Numbered from the stretch's first letter, positions 17,808 through 55,940 are shown. The stretch is 64,000 bases of DNA from GCF_988243305.1 NZ_OZ547136.1; one strand, 5' to 3'. Made by a program: numbers and translations. Notes: generated from the sequence alone by a model not told the origin.

Positions 17808-17953
17808 TTATGGGGTACCTGCGGCCTTAAAATAACACCCAGACAACATCACAGAAATGTACCTGGATCATAATTGAAACAAAAAGGTTAAAAAGTTTGA
17901 GCTGGCTCGCACAAACCAGCACTTTTTAAAGTTTTGTAATCAGTTTGGGGTAG

Positions 17954-34458: not shown

Positions 34459-34522
34459 GTTTGGGTTCAAGATTAGCCCCCGTGATGTTGTCAGGTGCAT
34501 ACCTGCAATATGCGGGGGTTTT
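34459..34522 (+). ncRNA. rdl: Rdl antisense RNA (antitoxin) of ldr copy 1, approximate ends
   Basis: Plus-strand stem-loop agcccccg...cgggggtttt (intrinsic terminator) antisense to the ldr leader; 5' end inferred from the recalled RdlD sequence. Confidence 0.5.
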
Positions 34523-34704
34523 CTCTCTCCAGCAACCAATGCCACTAGGGATTAAGCCCCCGCAACATTGCGCCTCACCGGAACCCTTCCGGCTTGCCGC
34601 TGATTCTACGGCCATTTTTGTTCGTCGAAATCCATCACTTCTTCACTCTGTGCTGCGCATTCCGCAGAATATTATCCGCTTGCAACCGTTGCATTTTTCT
34701 TACG

Positions 34705-34736
34705 AAAAAGGCCGCAGAGTTTTATCCCTGCGGCCT
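34705..34736 (-). terminator. Intrinsic terminator of ldr copy 2
   Basis: Same hairpin plus U-run as in unit 1, shifted by 483 bp. Confidence 0.7.
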
Positions 34737-34785
34737 GATCCGGGCGCAAATTGCCATTACGGCAGCCTGACGCCCGTCTGACACG

Positions 34786-34893
34786 TTACTTCCGCTTGTT
34801 CAGCCAGTTCACGATCAGACTGGCAAGAATGCCAGCAATGACCGGAGCCGCTAAATCATGCCAGAAGGCCATGCCCAGCTCTGCGAGCGTCAT
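34786..34893 (-). CDS. ldr: Type I toxin Ldr, 35 aa (copy 2, ...ILASLIVNWLNKRK)
   Basis: Last 35 codons of ORF 34786..35061 from the internal ATG at 34893. Confidence 0.85.
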   Translation of the reverse strand: MTLAELGMAFWHDLAAPVIAGILASLIVNWLNKRK

Positions 34894-34941
34894 ATAGCCG
34901 CCTGAGTTGTAATGACAACGTTTCGCGGCTATTCTTGTATT

Positions 34942-35005
34942 GTTTGGATGCAAGAATGGCCCCCGTGGTGTTGTCAGGTGCATACCTGCAACGTGCGGGG
35001 GTTTT
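34942..35005 (+). ncRNA. rdl: Rdl antisense RNA of ldr copy 2, approximate ends
   Basis: Plus-strand gcccccgtggtgttgtcaggtgcatacctgcaacgtgcgggggtttt stem-loop and terminator; the 5' part differs from copies 1 and 3. Confidence 0.45.
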
Positions 35006-35187
35006 CTCTCTCCAGCAACCAATGCCACCAGGGATAAAGCCCCCGCAACATTGCGCCTCACCGGAACCTTTCCGGCTTGCCGCTGATTCTACGACTGTTT
35101 TTCTGCTCCGGAATCCGTCACTTCTTCACTCTGTGCTGTGCATTCCGCAGAATATTATCCGCTTGCAACCGTTGCATTTTTCTTACG

Positions 35188-35219
35188 AAAAAGGCCGCAG
35201 AGTTTTATCCCTGCGGCCT
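35188..35219 (-). terminator. Intrinsic terminator of ldr copy 3
   Basis: Same hairpin plus U-run, shifted by 966 bp from unit 1. Confidence 0.7.
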
Positions 35220-35268
35220 GATCCGGACGCAACTTGCCATTACGGCAGCCTGACGCCCGTCTGACACG

Positions 35269-35376
35269 TTACTTCCGCTTATTCAGCCAATTCACGATCA
35301 TGCTGGCAAGAATGCCAGCAATGACCGGAGCCGCTAAATCATGCCAGAAGGCCATGCCCAGTTCTGCGAGCGTCAT
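35269..35376 (-). CDS. ldr: Type I toxin Ldr, 35 aa (copy 3, ...ILASMIVNWLNKRK)
   Basis: Last 35 codons of ORF 35269..35511 from the internal ATG at 35376. Confidence 0.85.
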   Translation of the reverse strand: MTLAELGMAFWHDLAAPVIAGILASMIVNWLNKRK

Positions 35377-35424
35377 ATAGCCGCCTGTGTTGTAATGACA
35401 ACGTTTCGCGGCTATTCTTGAGTG

Positions 35425-35488
35425 GTCTAGGTTCAAGATTAGCCCCCGTGATGTTGTCAGGTGCATACCTGCAACGTGCGGGGGTTTT
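35425..35488 (+). ncRNA. rdl: Rdl antisense RNA of ldr copy 3, approximate ends
   Basis: gtctaggttcaagattagcccccg...cgggggtttt on the plus strand; best match to the RdlD sequence as I recall it. Confidence 0.5.
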
Positions 35489-35851
35489 CTCTCTCCAGCA
35501 ACCAATGCCACCAGGGATTAAGCCCCCGCAACATTGCGCCTCACCGGAACCTTTCCGGCTTGCCGCTGATTTTACGATTGCTTTTTACCGTCAGCACCCG
35601 GCAATCTTCCTCATTGCGCGATGCCTTCCAGCTTAATTTCTTTATTTGCAATAGTTGCAGTTCATATCCGAGCTGACTCCAGACTGGTAGTGAAATGCGC
35701 AATTTTGTAGAATTGCGCCTCCTCGCGACCTCCCCAGTGAATCTGTTGCCTCATTTTTTACATACTGCGTATTCGACTTCTCCACCTGTTGCGCAAGAGA
35801 AACTGGGTTTATTCATTTTTGCGAGGCCGACTTCTTTCTGGACAGGACTTT

Positions 35852-41185: not shown

Positions 41186-41212
41186 GGCGCTGCACGCAGA
41201 GGCACAGCGCCA
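41186..41212 (-). other. Intergenic stem-loop between dppA and dppB (ggcgctg...cagcgcc); candidate mRNA-stabilising or attenuating hairpin
   Basis: Inverted repeat in the 150-bp dppA-dppB spacer; no U-run follows on the coding strand. Confidence 0.35.
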
Positions 41213-41229
41213 CCGGGTATGGCTTTTAA

Positions 41230-42837
41230 TTATTCGATAGAGACGTTTTCGAAGTGATGTTTGCCTAATGGATCAACCACATAGCCTTTAACTTCTTTGC
41301 GTACCGGTTCAAACACGGTGGAGTGAGCGATGATCAGTGCCGGAGCCTGATCGTGCATCACCACCTGCGCTTGCTTGTACAGTTCAACGCGTTTGTTATG
41401 GTCGTCGGTAGCACGCGCCGGTTGAATCAGATCTTCAAACGGTTTGTAGCACCATTTTGAGTAGTTGGAGCCTTGTTCAGAGGCGGCGCAGCTGAACAGG
41501 GTGGCGAAGAAGTTATCCGGATCCCCGTTGTCGCCAGTCCAGCCCATCATTACCGTCTGATGCTCGCCATCTTTCGCACGCTTGAGATACTCACCCCATT
41601 CGTAGGTGACAATTTTGGCCTGCACGCCCACTTTCGCCCAGTCTGCCTGAATCATCTCTGCCATGCGGCGAGCATTCGGGTTATACGGACGTTGTACCGG
41701 CATTGCCCACAGGTCGATGGAGAAGCCTTTTTCCAGGCCCGCTTCTTTCAGCAAGGCTTTCGCTTTTTCGGGATCGTAGGTGTAGTCCTGAACGTCGTCG
41801 TTATAGCCCCACATGGTTGGCGGGATCAGGTTTTTCGCTGCCACGCCCGCGCCCTGATAAACCGCTTTGATGATCGCGTCTTTGTTCACCGCGTAGGTCA
41901 GAGCCTGGCGAACTTTCACATCATCGAGTGGTTTTTTCTGCACGTTATATGAAAGATAGCCGACGTTCAGCCCCGGCATTTCCATCAGGTTGATGGATTT
42001 ATCCTGCTTCATGCGAGCGATGTCTGCCGGGTTCGGGTACGGCATCACCTGGCATTCATTCTTCTGCAATTTCGCGTAACGCACGGAAGCATCAGGGGTA
42101 ATAGAGAAAACCAGCGTATCGATCTGCGGTTTGGTGCCCCAGTAGCCATCAAACGCTTTGTAGCGGATACGGGAATCTTTTTGGTACTGCTGTAACTGGA
42201 ACGGACCGGTGCCGATTGGGTTGAGGTCCAGTTTTTCCGGTGTACCGGCTTTCATCATCGCGTCAGCATATTCTTTTGACAGAATAGAGGCGAAGTCCAT
42301 TGCCAGATCCGCGAGGAACGGCGCTTCCGGGCGAGTCAGCACGAACTGAACGGTGTTATCGTCCACCTTTTTCACTTCGCTGATCAGCTCCGGCAAGCCC
42401 ATGCCTTCGAAGTATTCGTAGCTGCCGCCAGAGACTTTATGGTACGGGTTTTGCGCGTTTTTCTGACGATCGAACGAGAACACCACGTCATCGGCGTTCA
42501 GTTCGCGCGTCGGTTTGAATTCTTTGTTGTCGTGCCACTTCACACCTTTACGCAGATGGAAGGTATAGGTTTTTCCGTCTTCGCTGACTTCCCACTTTTC
42601 AGCGAGGCCCGGGATTACTTCGGTGGTGCCGATTTTAAATTCAACCAGGCGGTTATAAAGCGGCACGGAAGAGGCGTCATAGGTGGTACCGGAGGTAAAC
42701 AGCTGCGGGTTAAACCCTTCCGGAGATCCTTCTGAGCAATAAACCAGAGTTTTAGCCTGAACACTTGCTGCGACGGTCATAGCCACCAGGCTGAGACCAA
42801 GCTTCAGCATCCCTGACTTTTTCAAGGAAATACGCAT
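41230..42837 (-). CDS. dppA: Periplasmic dipeptide-binding protein DppA, 535 aa
   Basis: ORF track; signal peptide MRISLKKSGMLKLGLSLVAMTVAASVQA; recognised as DppA. Confidence 0.97.
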   Translation of the reverse strand: MRISLKKSGMLKLGLSLVAMTVAASVQAKTLVYCSEGSPEGFNPQLFTSGTTYDASSVPLYNRLVEFKIGTTEVIPGLAEKWEVSEDGKTYTFHLRKGVKWHDNKEFKPTRELNADDVVFSFDRQKNAQNPYHKVSGGSYEYFEGMGLPELISEVKKVDDNTVQFVLTRPEAPFLADLAMDFASILSKEYADAMMKAGTPEKLDLNPIGTGPFQLQQYQKDSRIRYKAFDGYWGTKPQIDTLVFSITPDASVRYAKLQKNECQVMPYPNPADIARMKQDKSINLMEMPGLNVGYLSYNVQKKPLDDVKVRQALTYAVNKDAIIKAVYQGAGVAAKNLIPPTMWGYNDDVQDYTYDPEKAKALLKEAGLEKGFSIDLWAMPVQRPYNPNARRMAEMIQADWAKVGVQAKIVTYEWGEYLKRAKDGEHQTVMMGWTGDNGDPDNFFATLFSCAASEQGSNYSKWCYKPFEDLIQPARATDDHNKRVELYKQAQVVMHDQAPALIIAHSTVFEPVRKEVKGYVVDPLGKHHFENVSIE

Positions 42838-42849
42838 TATTCTGCTCCA

Positions 42850-42872
42850 ATTGTGATGTTTGTTGTTTTAAC
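42850..42872 (-). promoter_or_regulatory. CA-rich element in the dppA 5' UTR (known GcvB sRNA target site)
   Basis: Minus-strand AAAACAACAAACATCACAA immediately upstream of the dppA Shine-Dalgarno (GGAG). Confidence 0.65.
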
Positions 42873-43460
42873 CCTTTGCAGTGGGTTGTCGCTGCCTGAC
42901 CTTTTTTGTTTTTTGCCCGGTCGGGTCAACGTTATGAGGTGGGGATGCCGTACTAATTAACATCAGTGTAACAGTGCGGATCCTCCATAAAATGCCCCTC
43001 GTGACCTACAATCTGTCAACAGAATGTGAAAACGTCAATACAGCCAACCGGGATTTACACCAACGGTGAGAATCCACAAACAAAGATTAAAAAAACTTCA
43101 AACAGCTATTTGCAGCAGAGAAATTTGTGCTACTCCAACATGACCAGAACAATCAGCTTAATATTTAGCAACAATTGGTGATTAAGTTTTATGCATTTTG
43201 TGAAAAAAATCTGAGGAAAAGGTGGATATCTGAGCGATTAATACCATGAACGCTAAAACGCACAGCGGAAAATGCCAGCGCCAGTCATAAGTAACGCAAA
43301 AAAAGATTTAAGCAAATATAAAAAAAGACAATGGTTTCTGTCACAAATCCGTTAATGGATAGTGAGATATGGGGCGCAAATTTGGCAGGGAAATGTGTGG
43401 TGTGTTGCCGTTTAGATCGGATAAGACGGATACGCTGTATCCCACAATGAGTGCGGTGCC

Positions 43461-43560
43461 GAATTTGGTCGGTGCCAGAGGATTACTCGCCACTTCGTGG
43501 CTCGCCCTGCGGGCCGTTGCTGGCGCAACGTTCTCTCGCTTCGCTCGAGTCGAACCTCCC
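43461..43560 (-). other. tRNA-Pro-like 3' fragment (pseudo-tRNA remnant) with an approximately 60-nt insertion
   Basis: In proK orientation the segment reads ...ggaggttcga-[about 63 nt]-atcctctggcaccgaccaaattc, matching the proK T-arm and acceptor 3' end plus 6 flanking bases (ggaggttcgaatcctctatcaccgaccaaattc). Confidence 0.4.
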
Positions 43561-43597
43561 TGCCCCCGGAGGTTCTCATCCTCATAGGCTACAAATG

Positions 43598-43630
43598 CAA
43601 AAAAGCCTGCTCGTTGAGCAGGCTTTTCGA
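43598..43630 (-). terminator. proK intrinsic terminator (agcctgctc gttg agcaggct, U-run on the minus strand)
   Basis: 9/8-bp GC-rich stem followed by TTTTTT directly 3' of the tRNA. Confidence 0.85.
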
Positions 43631-43633
43631 ATT

Positions 43634-43710
<77 letters not shown>

Positions 43711-43801
43711 AATGCGGGGCGCATCTTACTGCGCAGATACGCCCTCGTCAATCCCTTAATAGCAAAATGCCTTTTGATCGGCGAGAAAGTCAGCAGGCCT
43801 C

Positions 43802-45493
43802 TTAGTTAGCCGCCGCCTCTCTTGCCTGCGGGATGTGGCACCAGTTGTTGTTTTCGTTAATTCCACCATCCGGTGAAGTATAGCCAAGACAACCCATGAT
43901 GGTGTCGTACAGCTCTACATGACGGCGTGGCACTTTCATGTCGGCTTCTTTTTTCAGCTGCGCAAATGCCTGCGCATTGGCCGGATTTTCTAGATATTTA
44001 TCTGACATCCAGACCATCATCGGCACACGGAACTGCTCCGGCGGTGCCAGTTCACGCGGTGTGCCGTGCAGGTGCTCGCGTTCATTAATTGACTCACCGT
44101 GGTCAGCTGCGTAGAACACAATCGCTTTCTTATCGCGAACCTGATCAATCACGCTGGAGATAAAGTGATCCACATAGGTCACCGAGTTGTCATAGGAGTT
44201 GATCATCTGCGCTTTGGTACAGCCGCTATCAACACCAATACATTCCGGCTTCCACTGCGCAAAGCTGCGCGGGTAACGCTGGGTGTAGTTAAAGTGCGAA
44301 CCTTTGGTATGCAAAATGATCAGATGCTTGCCATCCGGGTTGCGCCCCAGCGATTGCTGCATTTCGTCTACCAGCAACATATCATCTACCGGCTTGCCAC
44401 GGTTACGTGGCTCCGCACCAATCTGCTCACGATAAGCAATGTTGTCTGCCATCGTGTTGCTGTAGAACCACATTTCGCTTTGCATAGCGTAGAGATCAGA
44501 ACTGAATCCTAACTGCTTCAGCACCGCGAAAATGTTCTGTTCTTTTAATGTGCGCTGCGGATTATCTTCCGCGCCCCCCTGACGTACAAACATGCAACGC
44601 AGTGAGAGTTTAGTTGCGGTATCACAGGAGTAACCACGGAACGCTGCCAGATTTTTCTCCTGGGCCAGCTTCGGCGTGGTATTACGCTCATAGCCAAAAA
44701 TGCCCATATGGTCCCAACGCGTGGTTTCACCGATGATAAACACGACATAAGTGTCATCAACGTTTTGCGGTGCCTGATAAGTGAATTTCTTCGCCGGGTT
44801 AAGCAATGAATTATTATCGGAAGATTCATCGACCCGCGCCCAGGCATACAGCCCCAACGCAGAAAGCCAGTTTGATGGCAGATAAGAGTTCGCTACGACA
44901 CCGCCATAGCTGGGCAAATCAACACCGGTCGCCCTCTCCACTTTCTTCTGCTGGATATCCAGCAAACGAATCGGTGCCCAAACCATAATACCCGCCAGTA
45001 CGACGACCGCCAGGCTGCGAATACGCTGCCCTGGGGTTCGCAGTTGTCGGAGCAAGGTGTAGCGACAGCGGTTATTCCAGATAAGGATAAGAGGCAATGC
45101 GCTAACGGCGATTAACCAGAGAATAAAGTTCAGACCAACAACTTCTTTTGACAGGTCGATATCGGTGGTCATGACGGAAGCGATGATGCCATAACCAATG
45201 ACCACATTAAGGAAGGTCATGTAATAGCTGGCACCTGCGGAAAAGAGCACCACCAGCGACGCCAGAATACGCCAGCTACGGCGGCCAAACAGCGAAAGAA
45301 GACGTAGTAAAAAGAAGGTCACCAGTACGGTGGCGGCCAGTTCAACAACAGCAGAAATGCCTTTCCAGACGGTAAAATCGTGCGCATAGCTGCCGAAGCG
45401 GCGGTAAAAAACCGCGCCATTCATAAAAAGGCCAATATAGATTGCAAGCAAAAAGCTCAGCTTCTGCTGTGTAATCGATTTGATGTATCTCAT
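43802..45493 (-). CDS. eptB: Kdo2-lipid A phosphoethanolamine transferase EptB, 563 aa
   Basis: ORF track 43802..45526; canonical start [16 protein letters not shown] at the internal ATG (45493); N-terminal TM segments plus sulfatase-like domain. Confidence 0.94.
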
Positions 45494-45816
45494 GCAAACA
45501 AACCCTGGACAAACAGGTGATAACACCCTGCTTAATGGCTTTTCAGGCCAGGCAGGGGAAAAGTGCGGAGGTAGTCAGATAAGTAAAATCTACACGCGCG
45601 AATAAGTAGACCACAGCAAAGGGAAAAAGTGTGGGGAAAGAGTGTGCACGAAGCACAAATTTACAAAAATGCAAGTTTGAAAAGAGACTTTAGCGTTACA
45701 AAAAGCAGTAAAAAGGGCCAGTTAACTGGCCCAAATTTTACGCGTCATTGTTTATACATTGCGTTGAAGCGTTTGATTCACACTAAGGCTAAAGCCCAGT
45801 AGCTCGCGGCAGATGA

Positions 45817-54870: not shown

Positions 54871-54907
54871 TTGCATCACCCGCCAATGCGTGGCTTAATG
54901 CACATCA
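54871..54907 (+). promoter_or_regulatory. cspA promoter (-35 TTGCAT, -10 CTTAAT, AT-rich UP element upstream)
   Basis: Hexamers with 17-bp spacing ending about 8 bp before the inferred transcription start at 54908. Confidence 0.65.
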
Positions 54908-55066
54908 ACGGTTTGACGTACAGACCATTAAAGCAGTGTAGTAAGGCAAGTCCCTTCAAGAGTTATCGTTGATACCCCTCGTAGTGCACATTCCTTTAAC
55001 GCTTCAAAATCTGTAAAGCACGCCATATCGCCGAAAGGCACACTTAATTATTAAAGGTAATACACT
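54908..55066 (+). promoter_or_regulatory. cspA 159-nt 5' UTR (RNA thermosensor) including the cold box TGACGTACAGA at 54914..54924
   Basis: Cold-box sequence present near the 5' end of the leader; long untranslated leader before the cspA Shine-Dalgarno. Confidence 0.75.
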
Positions 55067-55279
55067 ATGTCCGGTAAAATGACTGGTATCGTAAAATGGT
55101 TCAACGCTGACAAAGGCTTCGGCTTCATCACTCCTGACGATGGCTCTAAAGACGTGTTCGTACACTTCTCTGCTATCCAGAACGATGGTTACAAATCTCT
55201 GGACGAAGGTCAGAAAGTGTCCTTCACCATCGAAAGCGGCGCTAAAGGCCCGGCAGCTGGTAACGTAACCAGCCTGTAA
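55067..55279 (+). CDS. cspA: Major cold-shock protein CspA, 70 aa
   Basis: ORF track; RNP1 KGFGFI and RNP2 VFVHF motifs; exact recognition of [34 protein letters not shown]... Confidence 0.98.
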
Positions 55280-55306
55280 TCTCTGCTTAAAAGCACAGAA
55301 TCTAAG

Positions 55307-55335
55307 ATCCCTGCCATTTGGCGGGGATTTTTTTA
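55307..55335 (+). terminator. cspA intrinsic terminator (atccctgcc attt ggcggggat followed by TTTTTTT)
   Basis: GC-rich hairpin plus T7 run 28 bp after the cspA stop. Confidence 0.9.
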
Positions 55336-55466: not shown

Positions 55467-55619
55467 TTACTCTTTCAAATTGCAGGCTAAAAATGCCGCC
55501 AGCTCATAACTCCCCTGTTTAATATGCAATTCACACAGTGAATCTCTTATCATCCAGGTGAAAAATAAAAGCGTGCAACAAATCACTATTAAAGAAAGTA
55601 ATCTATATTTCTGCGGCAT
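55467..55619 (-). CDS. hokA: Type I toxin HokA (Hok/Gef family small membrane toxin), 50 aa
   Basis: Internal ATG of ORF 55467..55679 with AGGAGG Shine-Dalgarno 6 nt upstream; MPQKYRLLSLIVICCTLLFFTWMIRDSLCELHIKQGSYELAAFLACNLKE. Confidence 0.88.
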   Translation of the reverse strand: MPQKYRLLSLIVICCTLLFFTWMIRDSLCELHIKQGSYELAAFLACNLKE

Positions 55620-55940
55620 TCCCAGCCTCCTGTGTTGATTTCCAACGAGTAAGAGGCTAACCTTATGGTGTTCAGGCATAGGGTAGCCTCACTTTGATTT
55701 ATAGTCAGGTGGGGCTTTTCTCTGTCTGCCTTTCGGTGAATACCTGAGACAAACAGTCTCAAGCACCCGCAGCTATTCTAGCTTAATAAGTTCGTTTCTT
55801 CTCCTTGATATAATCCTAAAAAAATCTCATAAAATTAATATATGAGACAATCTTTATTCAGCAGAAGATTATTAAAGGTTGCTCTATTATTTAGCGATAA
55901 AAAAGCCTGCCAGATGGCAGGCTTTTTAATAACGGCGTTA

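Follow-up and report, generated by a model that had tools for sequence, protein, structure and literature searches.

The window is a 64,000-nucleotide stretch of DNA from a non-K-12 E. coli strain. Within it, the dipeptide-binding protein gene dppA and the tRNA gene proK both lie on the minus strand, and the gap between them covers 796 bp (42838..43633). The first-pass annotation had described some 800 bp of spacing between these genes with no credible open reading frame, and the dppA and proK coordinates reproduce that extent exactly. The A of the dppA ATG is at 42837; negative positions below count upstream from this codon. proK is the sole tRNA that ARAGORN finds in the window, and eptB follows beyond it. 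The features of the interval are listed here, with the basis of each in brackets.

41230..42837, minus strand: dppA coding sequence, periplasmic dipeptide-binding protein of 535 aa (open reading frame; annotated in the 99.9%-identical O169:H41 record)
42838..43002, minus strand: dppA 5′ untranslated leader, 165 nt (RegulonDB and EHEC Cappable-seq transcription starts; fusion cloned from -165)
42845..42848 (-11..-8), minus strand: Shine-Dalgarno sequence GGAG (sequence; GGAGCAG near-invariant in 80 loci)
42851..42869 (-32..-14), minus strand: C/A-rich element AAAACAACAAACATCACAA, GcvB R1 target and translation enhancer (sequence, pairing, conservation, literature)
42871..42886, minus strand: small leader hairpin ACCCACUGCAAAGGGU (minimum free energy (MFE) fold; alignments)
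42902..42914 (-77..-65), minus strand: A-rich tract AAAAAACAAAAAA, candidate (ARN)n Hfq distal-face site (conservation, MFE fold)
43010..43038, minus strand: dppA core promoter P1, with TTGACG at 43033..43038, a 17-nt spacer, TGn-CAGATT (-10 at 43010..43015) and an A at 43002 (sequence against the mapped start)
43051..43350 (-214..-513), no strand assigned: conserved AT-rich upstream block, taken as cis-regulatory DNA (identity to 73 species)
43315..43344, minus strand: promoter-like GTGACA-18-TATATT inside the upstream block (consensus scan, 10/12)
43410..43446, no strand assigned: diverged REP-like palindromic element (aligns with the K-12 and O157 REP copies at the same position)
43460..43484, no strand assigned: 25-nt copy of the proK 3′ end plus 6 nt, which closes the 168-bp RtT unit (direct repeat of 43628..43652, 92% identity, spacing 168)
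43466..43601, minus strand: RtT repeat, tRNA-operon-associated, Rfam RF00391 (cmscan 98.7 bits against a gathering score of 45; model positions 1-130 of 130)
43599..43628, minus strand: proK intrinsic terminator, 13-bp stem, loop AAC, U6 (fold -18.2 kcal/mol, z = -4.6; perfect 12-nt inverted repeat)
43634..43710, minus strand: proK, tRNA-Pro(CGG) (ARAGORN; Rfam tRNA 60.7 bits)
43802..45526, minus strand: eptB (open reading frame; annotation in the closest genome)

The gap sequence is 99.9% identical to that of E. coli O169:H41 Res13-Lact-PER13-34, and a match to it is present in 5422 of 5426 complete E. coli genomes. Published dppA experiments were done in K-12, EHEC and Salmonella. The 570 bp adjacent to dppA, which include the whole leader, are nearly identical in the window, K-12 and O157:H7, so that the published E. 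coli results transfer directly. Beyond the leader, the gap had been described as AT-rich, promoter-like sequence plus a tRNA-like fragment. This is roughly right and incomplete: the AT-richness holds, with 33-43% GC in 43000..43400 against 53-54% inside the dppA coding sequence, the fragment is an RtT repeat unit, and about 300 bp of the AT-rich part prove to be conserved across genera. Taken as a whole, the gap very probably combines known elements along the dppA strand, with leader, promoter, upstream block and proK-side repeats. The dppA-proximal ∼515 bp, conserved across the Enterobacteriaceae, would comprise the AT-rich block, a sigma-70-type promoter and the leader. On the other side of dppA, the dppA-dppB spacer (window 41206..41229) differs in length between strains, at ∼150 bp for O157 and the closest genome but 307 bp for K-12, and repeat elements are suspected to account for the difference.

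The proK-proximal part of the gap reads as an intrinsic terminator, one 168-bp RtT unit and then the REP-like element. A terminator scan of 42700..43900 reported none despite the clear proK terminator at 43599..43628, whose 13-bp stem and U6 make that negative untrustworthy. The RtT repeat lies 33 nt downstream of proK as a tRNA-adjacent repeat unit that exceeds the gathering score over the full model; a copy of the T-arm sequence is also found within the unit. In the closest genome 43466..43601 is annotated as ‘RtT sRNA’, and the segment is alignable with K-12 rttR downstream of tyrV. With the RtT/rttR of the tyrT operon it shares the full-length model match, the position next to a tRNA, the tRNA 3′-end copy that closes the unit and a variable copy number. 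However, the window copy follows proK rather than tyrV, comes after an intrinsic terminator and does not preserve the Tpr frame. The strong terminator between proK and the RtT body makes transcription of the proK-linked copy uncertain, and this copy may be poorly transcribed. The number of RtT units at proK is 1.5 in K-12 (a 910-bp gap) and one in the window, and the repeat is truncated in O157:H7 (a 744-bp gap); among the sampled E. coli genomes, the common class with 83% coverage has the truncated form, as in O157.

The REP-like element matches REP/BIME copies of other E. coli strains in position and alignment, but it has diverged more from the REP consensus than its K-12 and O157 counterparts and is REP-like by alignment. 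IS621 has inserted at about this element in O103:H2 strain 12009. In that strain similarity to the gap ends at query position 568 (window ∼43405), near the REP-like element, with the IS110-family IS621 transposase gene beyond and different downstream genes (yiiF, yiiE). The same genome carries a 167-aa ‘hypothetical protein’ annotated across the dppA upstream block, which looks like an annotation artefact. The distal 230 bp of the gap, RtT and REP together, is strain-variable repeat material that apparently plays no part in dppA control.

The transcription start of dppA has been placed 165 nt before the start codon in MG1655 (RegulonDB v10.5) and 165 and 166 nt before it in E. coli O157:H7 EDL933 by Cappable-seq (PMC10469882 Table S5, a start-site table that covers the 250 bp before each start codon). 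The E. coli dppA::gfp fusion of Urban and Vogel begins at -165, in keeping with their rule of cloning from +1 where this was known (PMC1807950). Given the near-identity of the dppA-adjacent 570 bp to K-12 and O157:H7, the start maps to window position 43002/43003. The Shigella M90T start-site tables list no dppA entry. A start mapped downstream of the C/A-rich element would have told against a GcvB target there; the published starts lie upstream, at -165/-166 (window 43002), and the element is within the transcribed leader. 

Upstream of the start, 7 nt separate CAGATT from the A at 43002. This -10 hexamer matches the consensus at 3/6 positions, and the consensus promoter scan did not call P1. 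The 10-nt bins over both hexamers (43040..43031 and 43020..43011) have a majority identity of 0.98-1.00 across 76 species. The arrangement fits a sigma-70 promoter with an extended -10, with hexamers putatively assigned from the sequence. A promoter of this sigma-70 type would start transcription 165 nt before the ATG, the start itself having been shown elsewhere (RegulonDB, Cappable-seq).

Two further leader features stand out. The small hairpin ACCCACUGCAAAGGGU is kept in the Escherichia, Salmonella, Citrobacter and Kluyvera lineages, where alignments contain paired changes such as CCCCG..CGGGG variants, and is absent from the Klebsiella and Enterobacter lineages. The A-rich tract AAAAAACAAAAAA has a conservation of 0.87-0.88 and is unpaired in the MFE fold. 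Hfq binds the 5′ 166 nt of dppA ∼10-fold more tightly than it binds sRNAs, and distal-face ARN binding has been proposed (PMC4104026); the tract at -77..-65 is a likely distal-face site, although the assignment to this exact tract is ours. RNAalifold on the whole leader gave no strongly supported consensus structure. A candidate upstream open reading frame at the leader start (AUGGAGGAUCC...) was rejected because its AUG is not conserved across genera, where CAGGG, CAAGG or CACGG occurs instead.

Conservation was surveyed with one genome per species, which yielded 80 Enterobacteriaceae loci from Escherichia, Salmonella, Citrobacter, Klebsiella, Enterobacter, Kluyvera, Kosakonia, Buttiauxella, Cedecea and other genera. 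Mean identities to the window, averaged over 73 species, are as follows.

dppA coding DNA: 0.85
Four-fold degenerate dppA sites: 0.57
C/A element and Shine-Dalgarno: 0.78
Middle of the leader: 0.59
Core promoter and leader start (-213..-143): 0.87
AT-rich upstream block (-214..-513): 0.70

Cross-genus conservation ends at the REP-like element (43410..43446). The upstream block is almost free of indels in alignments across >70 enterobacterial species. In E. coli it is a single-copy segment that 5422 of 5426 genomes carry, nearly always without annotation, and no paralogous copies were found elsewhere in E. coli. Its K-12 counterpart is 3,707,919..3,708,218. Islands in it such as GCA(C/T)AAATTTC(C/T)CTGCTG and TTTTTTTAATCTTTG reach a conservation of 0.93-0.96. 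Invariant islands are spaced ∼30 bp apart, and the variability is strongest at periods near 29-35 bp. The AT-rich block most likely holds protein-binding sites and is most simply read as cis-regulatory DNA whose proteins are as yet unassigned. Scans for familiar regulators returned little: three weak Lrp consensus hits in the block with 3 mismatches each, no IHF consensus hit in the gap, and one 2-mismatch CRP hit (43199..43214) that is not conserved in other genera. A literature search on the E. coli dppA promoter or upstream binding sites found nothing relevant; the dppA of the EGRIN paper is a Halobacterium gene, not E. coli dppA. Expression of dppA is reported to depend strongly on cAMP and to be repressed by glucose, a 2007 study knew of no CRP site for it, and control by amino acids, glucose/cAMP and growth phase has been reported, again with no binding sites reported as of that paper (PMC4512719, PMC1905917). 

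A more specific proposal, which we hold tentatively and regard as somewhat short of an even bet, is that the block is a conserved, uncharacterised control module of the dpp operon, either a docking site for a regulator or nucleoprotein complex or a distal promoter. Inside it, GTGACA-18-TATATT is a possible second promoter or protein site. This sequence also underlies a different and improbable account, in which the block encodes an unannotated transcript, either an sRNA or a longer dppA leader initiated at 43315..43344. Such a transcript would draw on a 10/12 sigma-70-like match on the dppA strand that is conserved in most genera, and on an invariant T7 run at ∼43087..43093, some 215 nt downstream. 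Moreover, because the published start-site table was limited to 250 bp upstream of start codons (PMC10469882), a dppA start near -470 would go unlisted. However, Salmonella has GC-rich sequence at the -10-like part, the T7 run in E. coli lacks a stable G+C-rich hairpin in front of it, and no transcript evidence for the block was found. RNAalifold assigns the block -7.7 kcal/mol over 300 nt, with almost no consensus structure and no compensatory pairs, and an Rfam search gave no match even at E<=1.

The central claim of the first-pass annotation concerned the leader itself, where CA-rich sequence just 5′ of the dppA Shine-Dalgarno, on the coding strand, was taken for a GcvB target. The sequence is there: AAAACAACAAACATCACAA occupies -32..-14 and is followed directly by UU and then GGAG. 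Its four ACA triplets all fall within the 15-nt segment ACAACAAACAUCACA, and ACAUCACAA within it comes close to the CACAACA-type motif of the literature. When both strands (128 kb) are scanned blind, however, the element is statistically unexceptional. Stretches of 19 nt with at least 18 A or C occur at four loci in the 64 kb window, both strands counted, and at least one turns up in 94% of 64 kb simulations; 10-nt Watson-Crick matches to GcvB R1 are likewise expected by chance in a scan of the window. Neither raw RNAduplex energies of R1 with every 40-nt segment of either strand nor a longest-helix scan allowing G-U pairs discriminated the site: many 40-mers had lower energies than the dppA site, and hundreds of window sites form helices of at least 11 bp with R1, whose G/U-richness lets it pair with very many sequences. 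The final chance tests were accordingly A/C content, Watson-Crick-only matches and a ranking restricted to initiation regions. Among the 39 translation-initiation regions of long open reading frames in the window, dppA comes top by each of three measures: its A/C content is 18/19 (runner-up 15/19), it has 4 ACA motifs per 15 nt (runner-up 3) and its R1 duplex energy is -29.6 kcal/mol (runner-up -20.3 kcal/mol). Since sequence statistics alone do not single out the site when the window is scanned blind, the GcvB claim rests on position, conservation and published experiments.

Other R1 complements occur in the window. The longest exact one is the 11-nt ACAACATCACA within ACACCCAGACAACATCACA (17834..17853, plus strand), a length expected by chance in 64 kb. 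Three tandem matches to the rdlD antitoxin RNA (RF01813) lie at 34459..35490 on the plus strand, spaced 483 bp apart, and within each repeat the minus strand carries ACAACATCAC, which matches the R1 complement over 10 nt, probably by chance. The triplet implies three ldr/rdl toxin-antitoxin repeats; K-12 presumably has a single ldrD/rdlD copy at the corresponding locus. Further along, a cspA thermoregulator leader (54907..55334, plus strand; Rfam 501 bits) and a sok-type antitoxin RNA (55617..55768, minus strand) fit a cspA-hokA neighbourhood.

Pairing predictions used the K-12 gcvB sequence, and only the R1 duplex result was retained; the full-length GcvB duplex with the leader paired end to end and was discarded as meaningless. 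In the R1 prediction, the 20 nt of the leader at -30..-11 (AACAACAAACAUCACAAUUG) form a duplex with GcvB nt 62-82 that has one bulged G and a hybrid energy of -22.2 kcal/mol. Opening costs of 0.5 kcal/mol for the target and 7.6 kcal/mol for GcvB leave a net of about -14 kcal/mol. Both the MFE and the centroid fold of the 195-nt leader leave the element unpaired, with a mean unpaired probability of 0.93. It thus has the properties of a GcvB R1 target, being C/A-rich, predicted to be single-stranded and complementary to R1 at or just upstream of the ribosome-binding site. The site has also been retained in evolution. A C/A-rich stretch lies directly 5′ of GGAGCAG in 80 of 80 loci, despite an upstream flank that is replaced or deleted in many lineages, and identity over the element and Shine-Dalgarno exceeds that at four-fold degenerate sites (0.78 vs 0.57).

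Published experiments carry the remainder of the case. An E. coli dppA::gfp fusion beginning at -165 was repressed 3.2-fold by GcvB, and 1.6-fold in a delta-hfq strain (PMC1807950), and deletion of gcvB raised E. coli dppA::lacZ expression ∼5-fold (PMC1557403). According to Tree et al., a direct interaction of GcvB R1 with dppA has been ‘rigorously demonstrated’ by means of a deltaR1 mutant and footprinting (PMC4104026). dppA is listed as a verified R1 target in E. coli and Salmonella, and independent interactome data sets place it among the top targets (PMC9299463). For Salmonella, Yang et al. (2014) defined the GcvB target in dppA as four ACA motifs in 15 nt near the Shine-Dalgarno that act as a translation enhancer; deleting the 15-nt ACA segment lowered dppA expression by 96% (PMC3879156). 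The window has the corresponding ACAACAAACAUCACA, with its four ACA motifs beside the Shine-Dalgarno, one base off the Salmonella sequence ACAACAUACAUCACA for which enhancer activity was shown. With the GcvB-dppA system as described, the window shares the gene, a leader identical to that of K-12 and O157, the Shine-Dalgarno-adjacent site, the four ACA motifs, the start at -165 and the predicted R1 pairing; there is no substantive difference beyond the strain, which is a non-K-12 E. coli. With mapped starts upstream of it and repression, footprinting and deltaR1 data behind it, the proposed GcvB target in the dppA leader stands, and no finding speaks against it.

The mechanism that these observations suggest is a simple one. 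The single-stranded C/A stretch at -32..-14, with its four ACA motifs, would raise translation initiation, as shown in Salmonella. The G/U-rich R1 of GcvB would pair with this stretch with the assistance of Hfq and mask both the enhancer and the adjacent Shine-Dalgarno, so that less DppA is made when GcvB is abundant. Repression has been shown in E. coli and Salmonella, and we infer its placement at the window coordinates from sequence identity. It is very unlikely that the stretch does no more than enhance translation or act as a low-complexity spacer, with merely incidental complementarity to GcvB. The promiscuity of R1 seen in the G-U-tolerant helix and raw-energy scans would allow for such a coincidence, as would the finding that ACA motifs alone enhance translation (PMC3879156). 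However, GcvB-dependent repression of dppA fusions has been published in E. coli, Salmonella and Yersinia (PMC1807950, PMC1557403, PMC4104026, PMC3879156), and the high rank of dppA in the interactome data (PMC9299463) points the same way. The two roles are also compatible, as the published model has GcvB silencing the enhancer. The identification of the C/A element as a GcvB R1 target is thus supported, and it is already known, textbook biology.

The gap was also considered as protein-coding DNA, a reading that was rejected. Mechanical open reading frames in it reach at most 136 aa, the longest running through the tRNA, and eight of them searched against Pfam and NCBIfam gave no match at E<=1. 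Substitutions across 76 species lack a period-3 signal, the period-3 power ranking 163 of 175. A hidden small protein gene, such as the Arg-rich 57-aa frame at 43412..43585 (minus strand) inside the RtT repeat, is hardly credible: K-12 annotation does place Tpr, a 29-aa ‘protamine-like protein’, inside rttR, and the window RtT has an ATG at the homologous position and a basic translation, but indels between the tyrT and proK RtT copies shift the frame, the part of the gap that carries the 57-aa frame is missing or truncated in most E. coli strains, no Pfam or NCBIfam family matches, and the conserved part of the gap lacks period-3 conservation.

Control of dppA by GcvB through the C/A-rich R1 sites of ABC-transporter mRNAs was reportedly described by Urbanowski (2000), Sharma (2007) and Pulvermacher (2008). 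The GcvB-dppA pair is among the founding examples of an sRNA that represses many transporter mRNAs through C/A-rich sites. Here the C/A site was recognisable from sequence alone, and the analysis adds no new biology to the pair. Its practical yield is a precise map of the proK-dppA gap, in which the conserved upstream block is the only element worth modest follow-up. If the control-module reading of that block is true, docking of a regulator there could explain the amino-acid, glucose/cAMP and growth-phase control of dppA.
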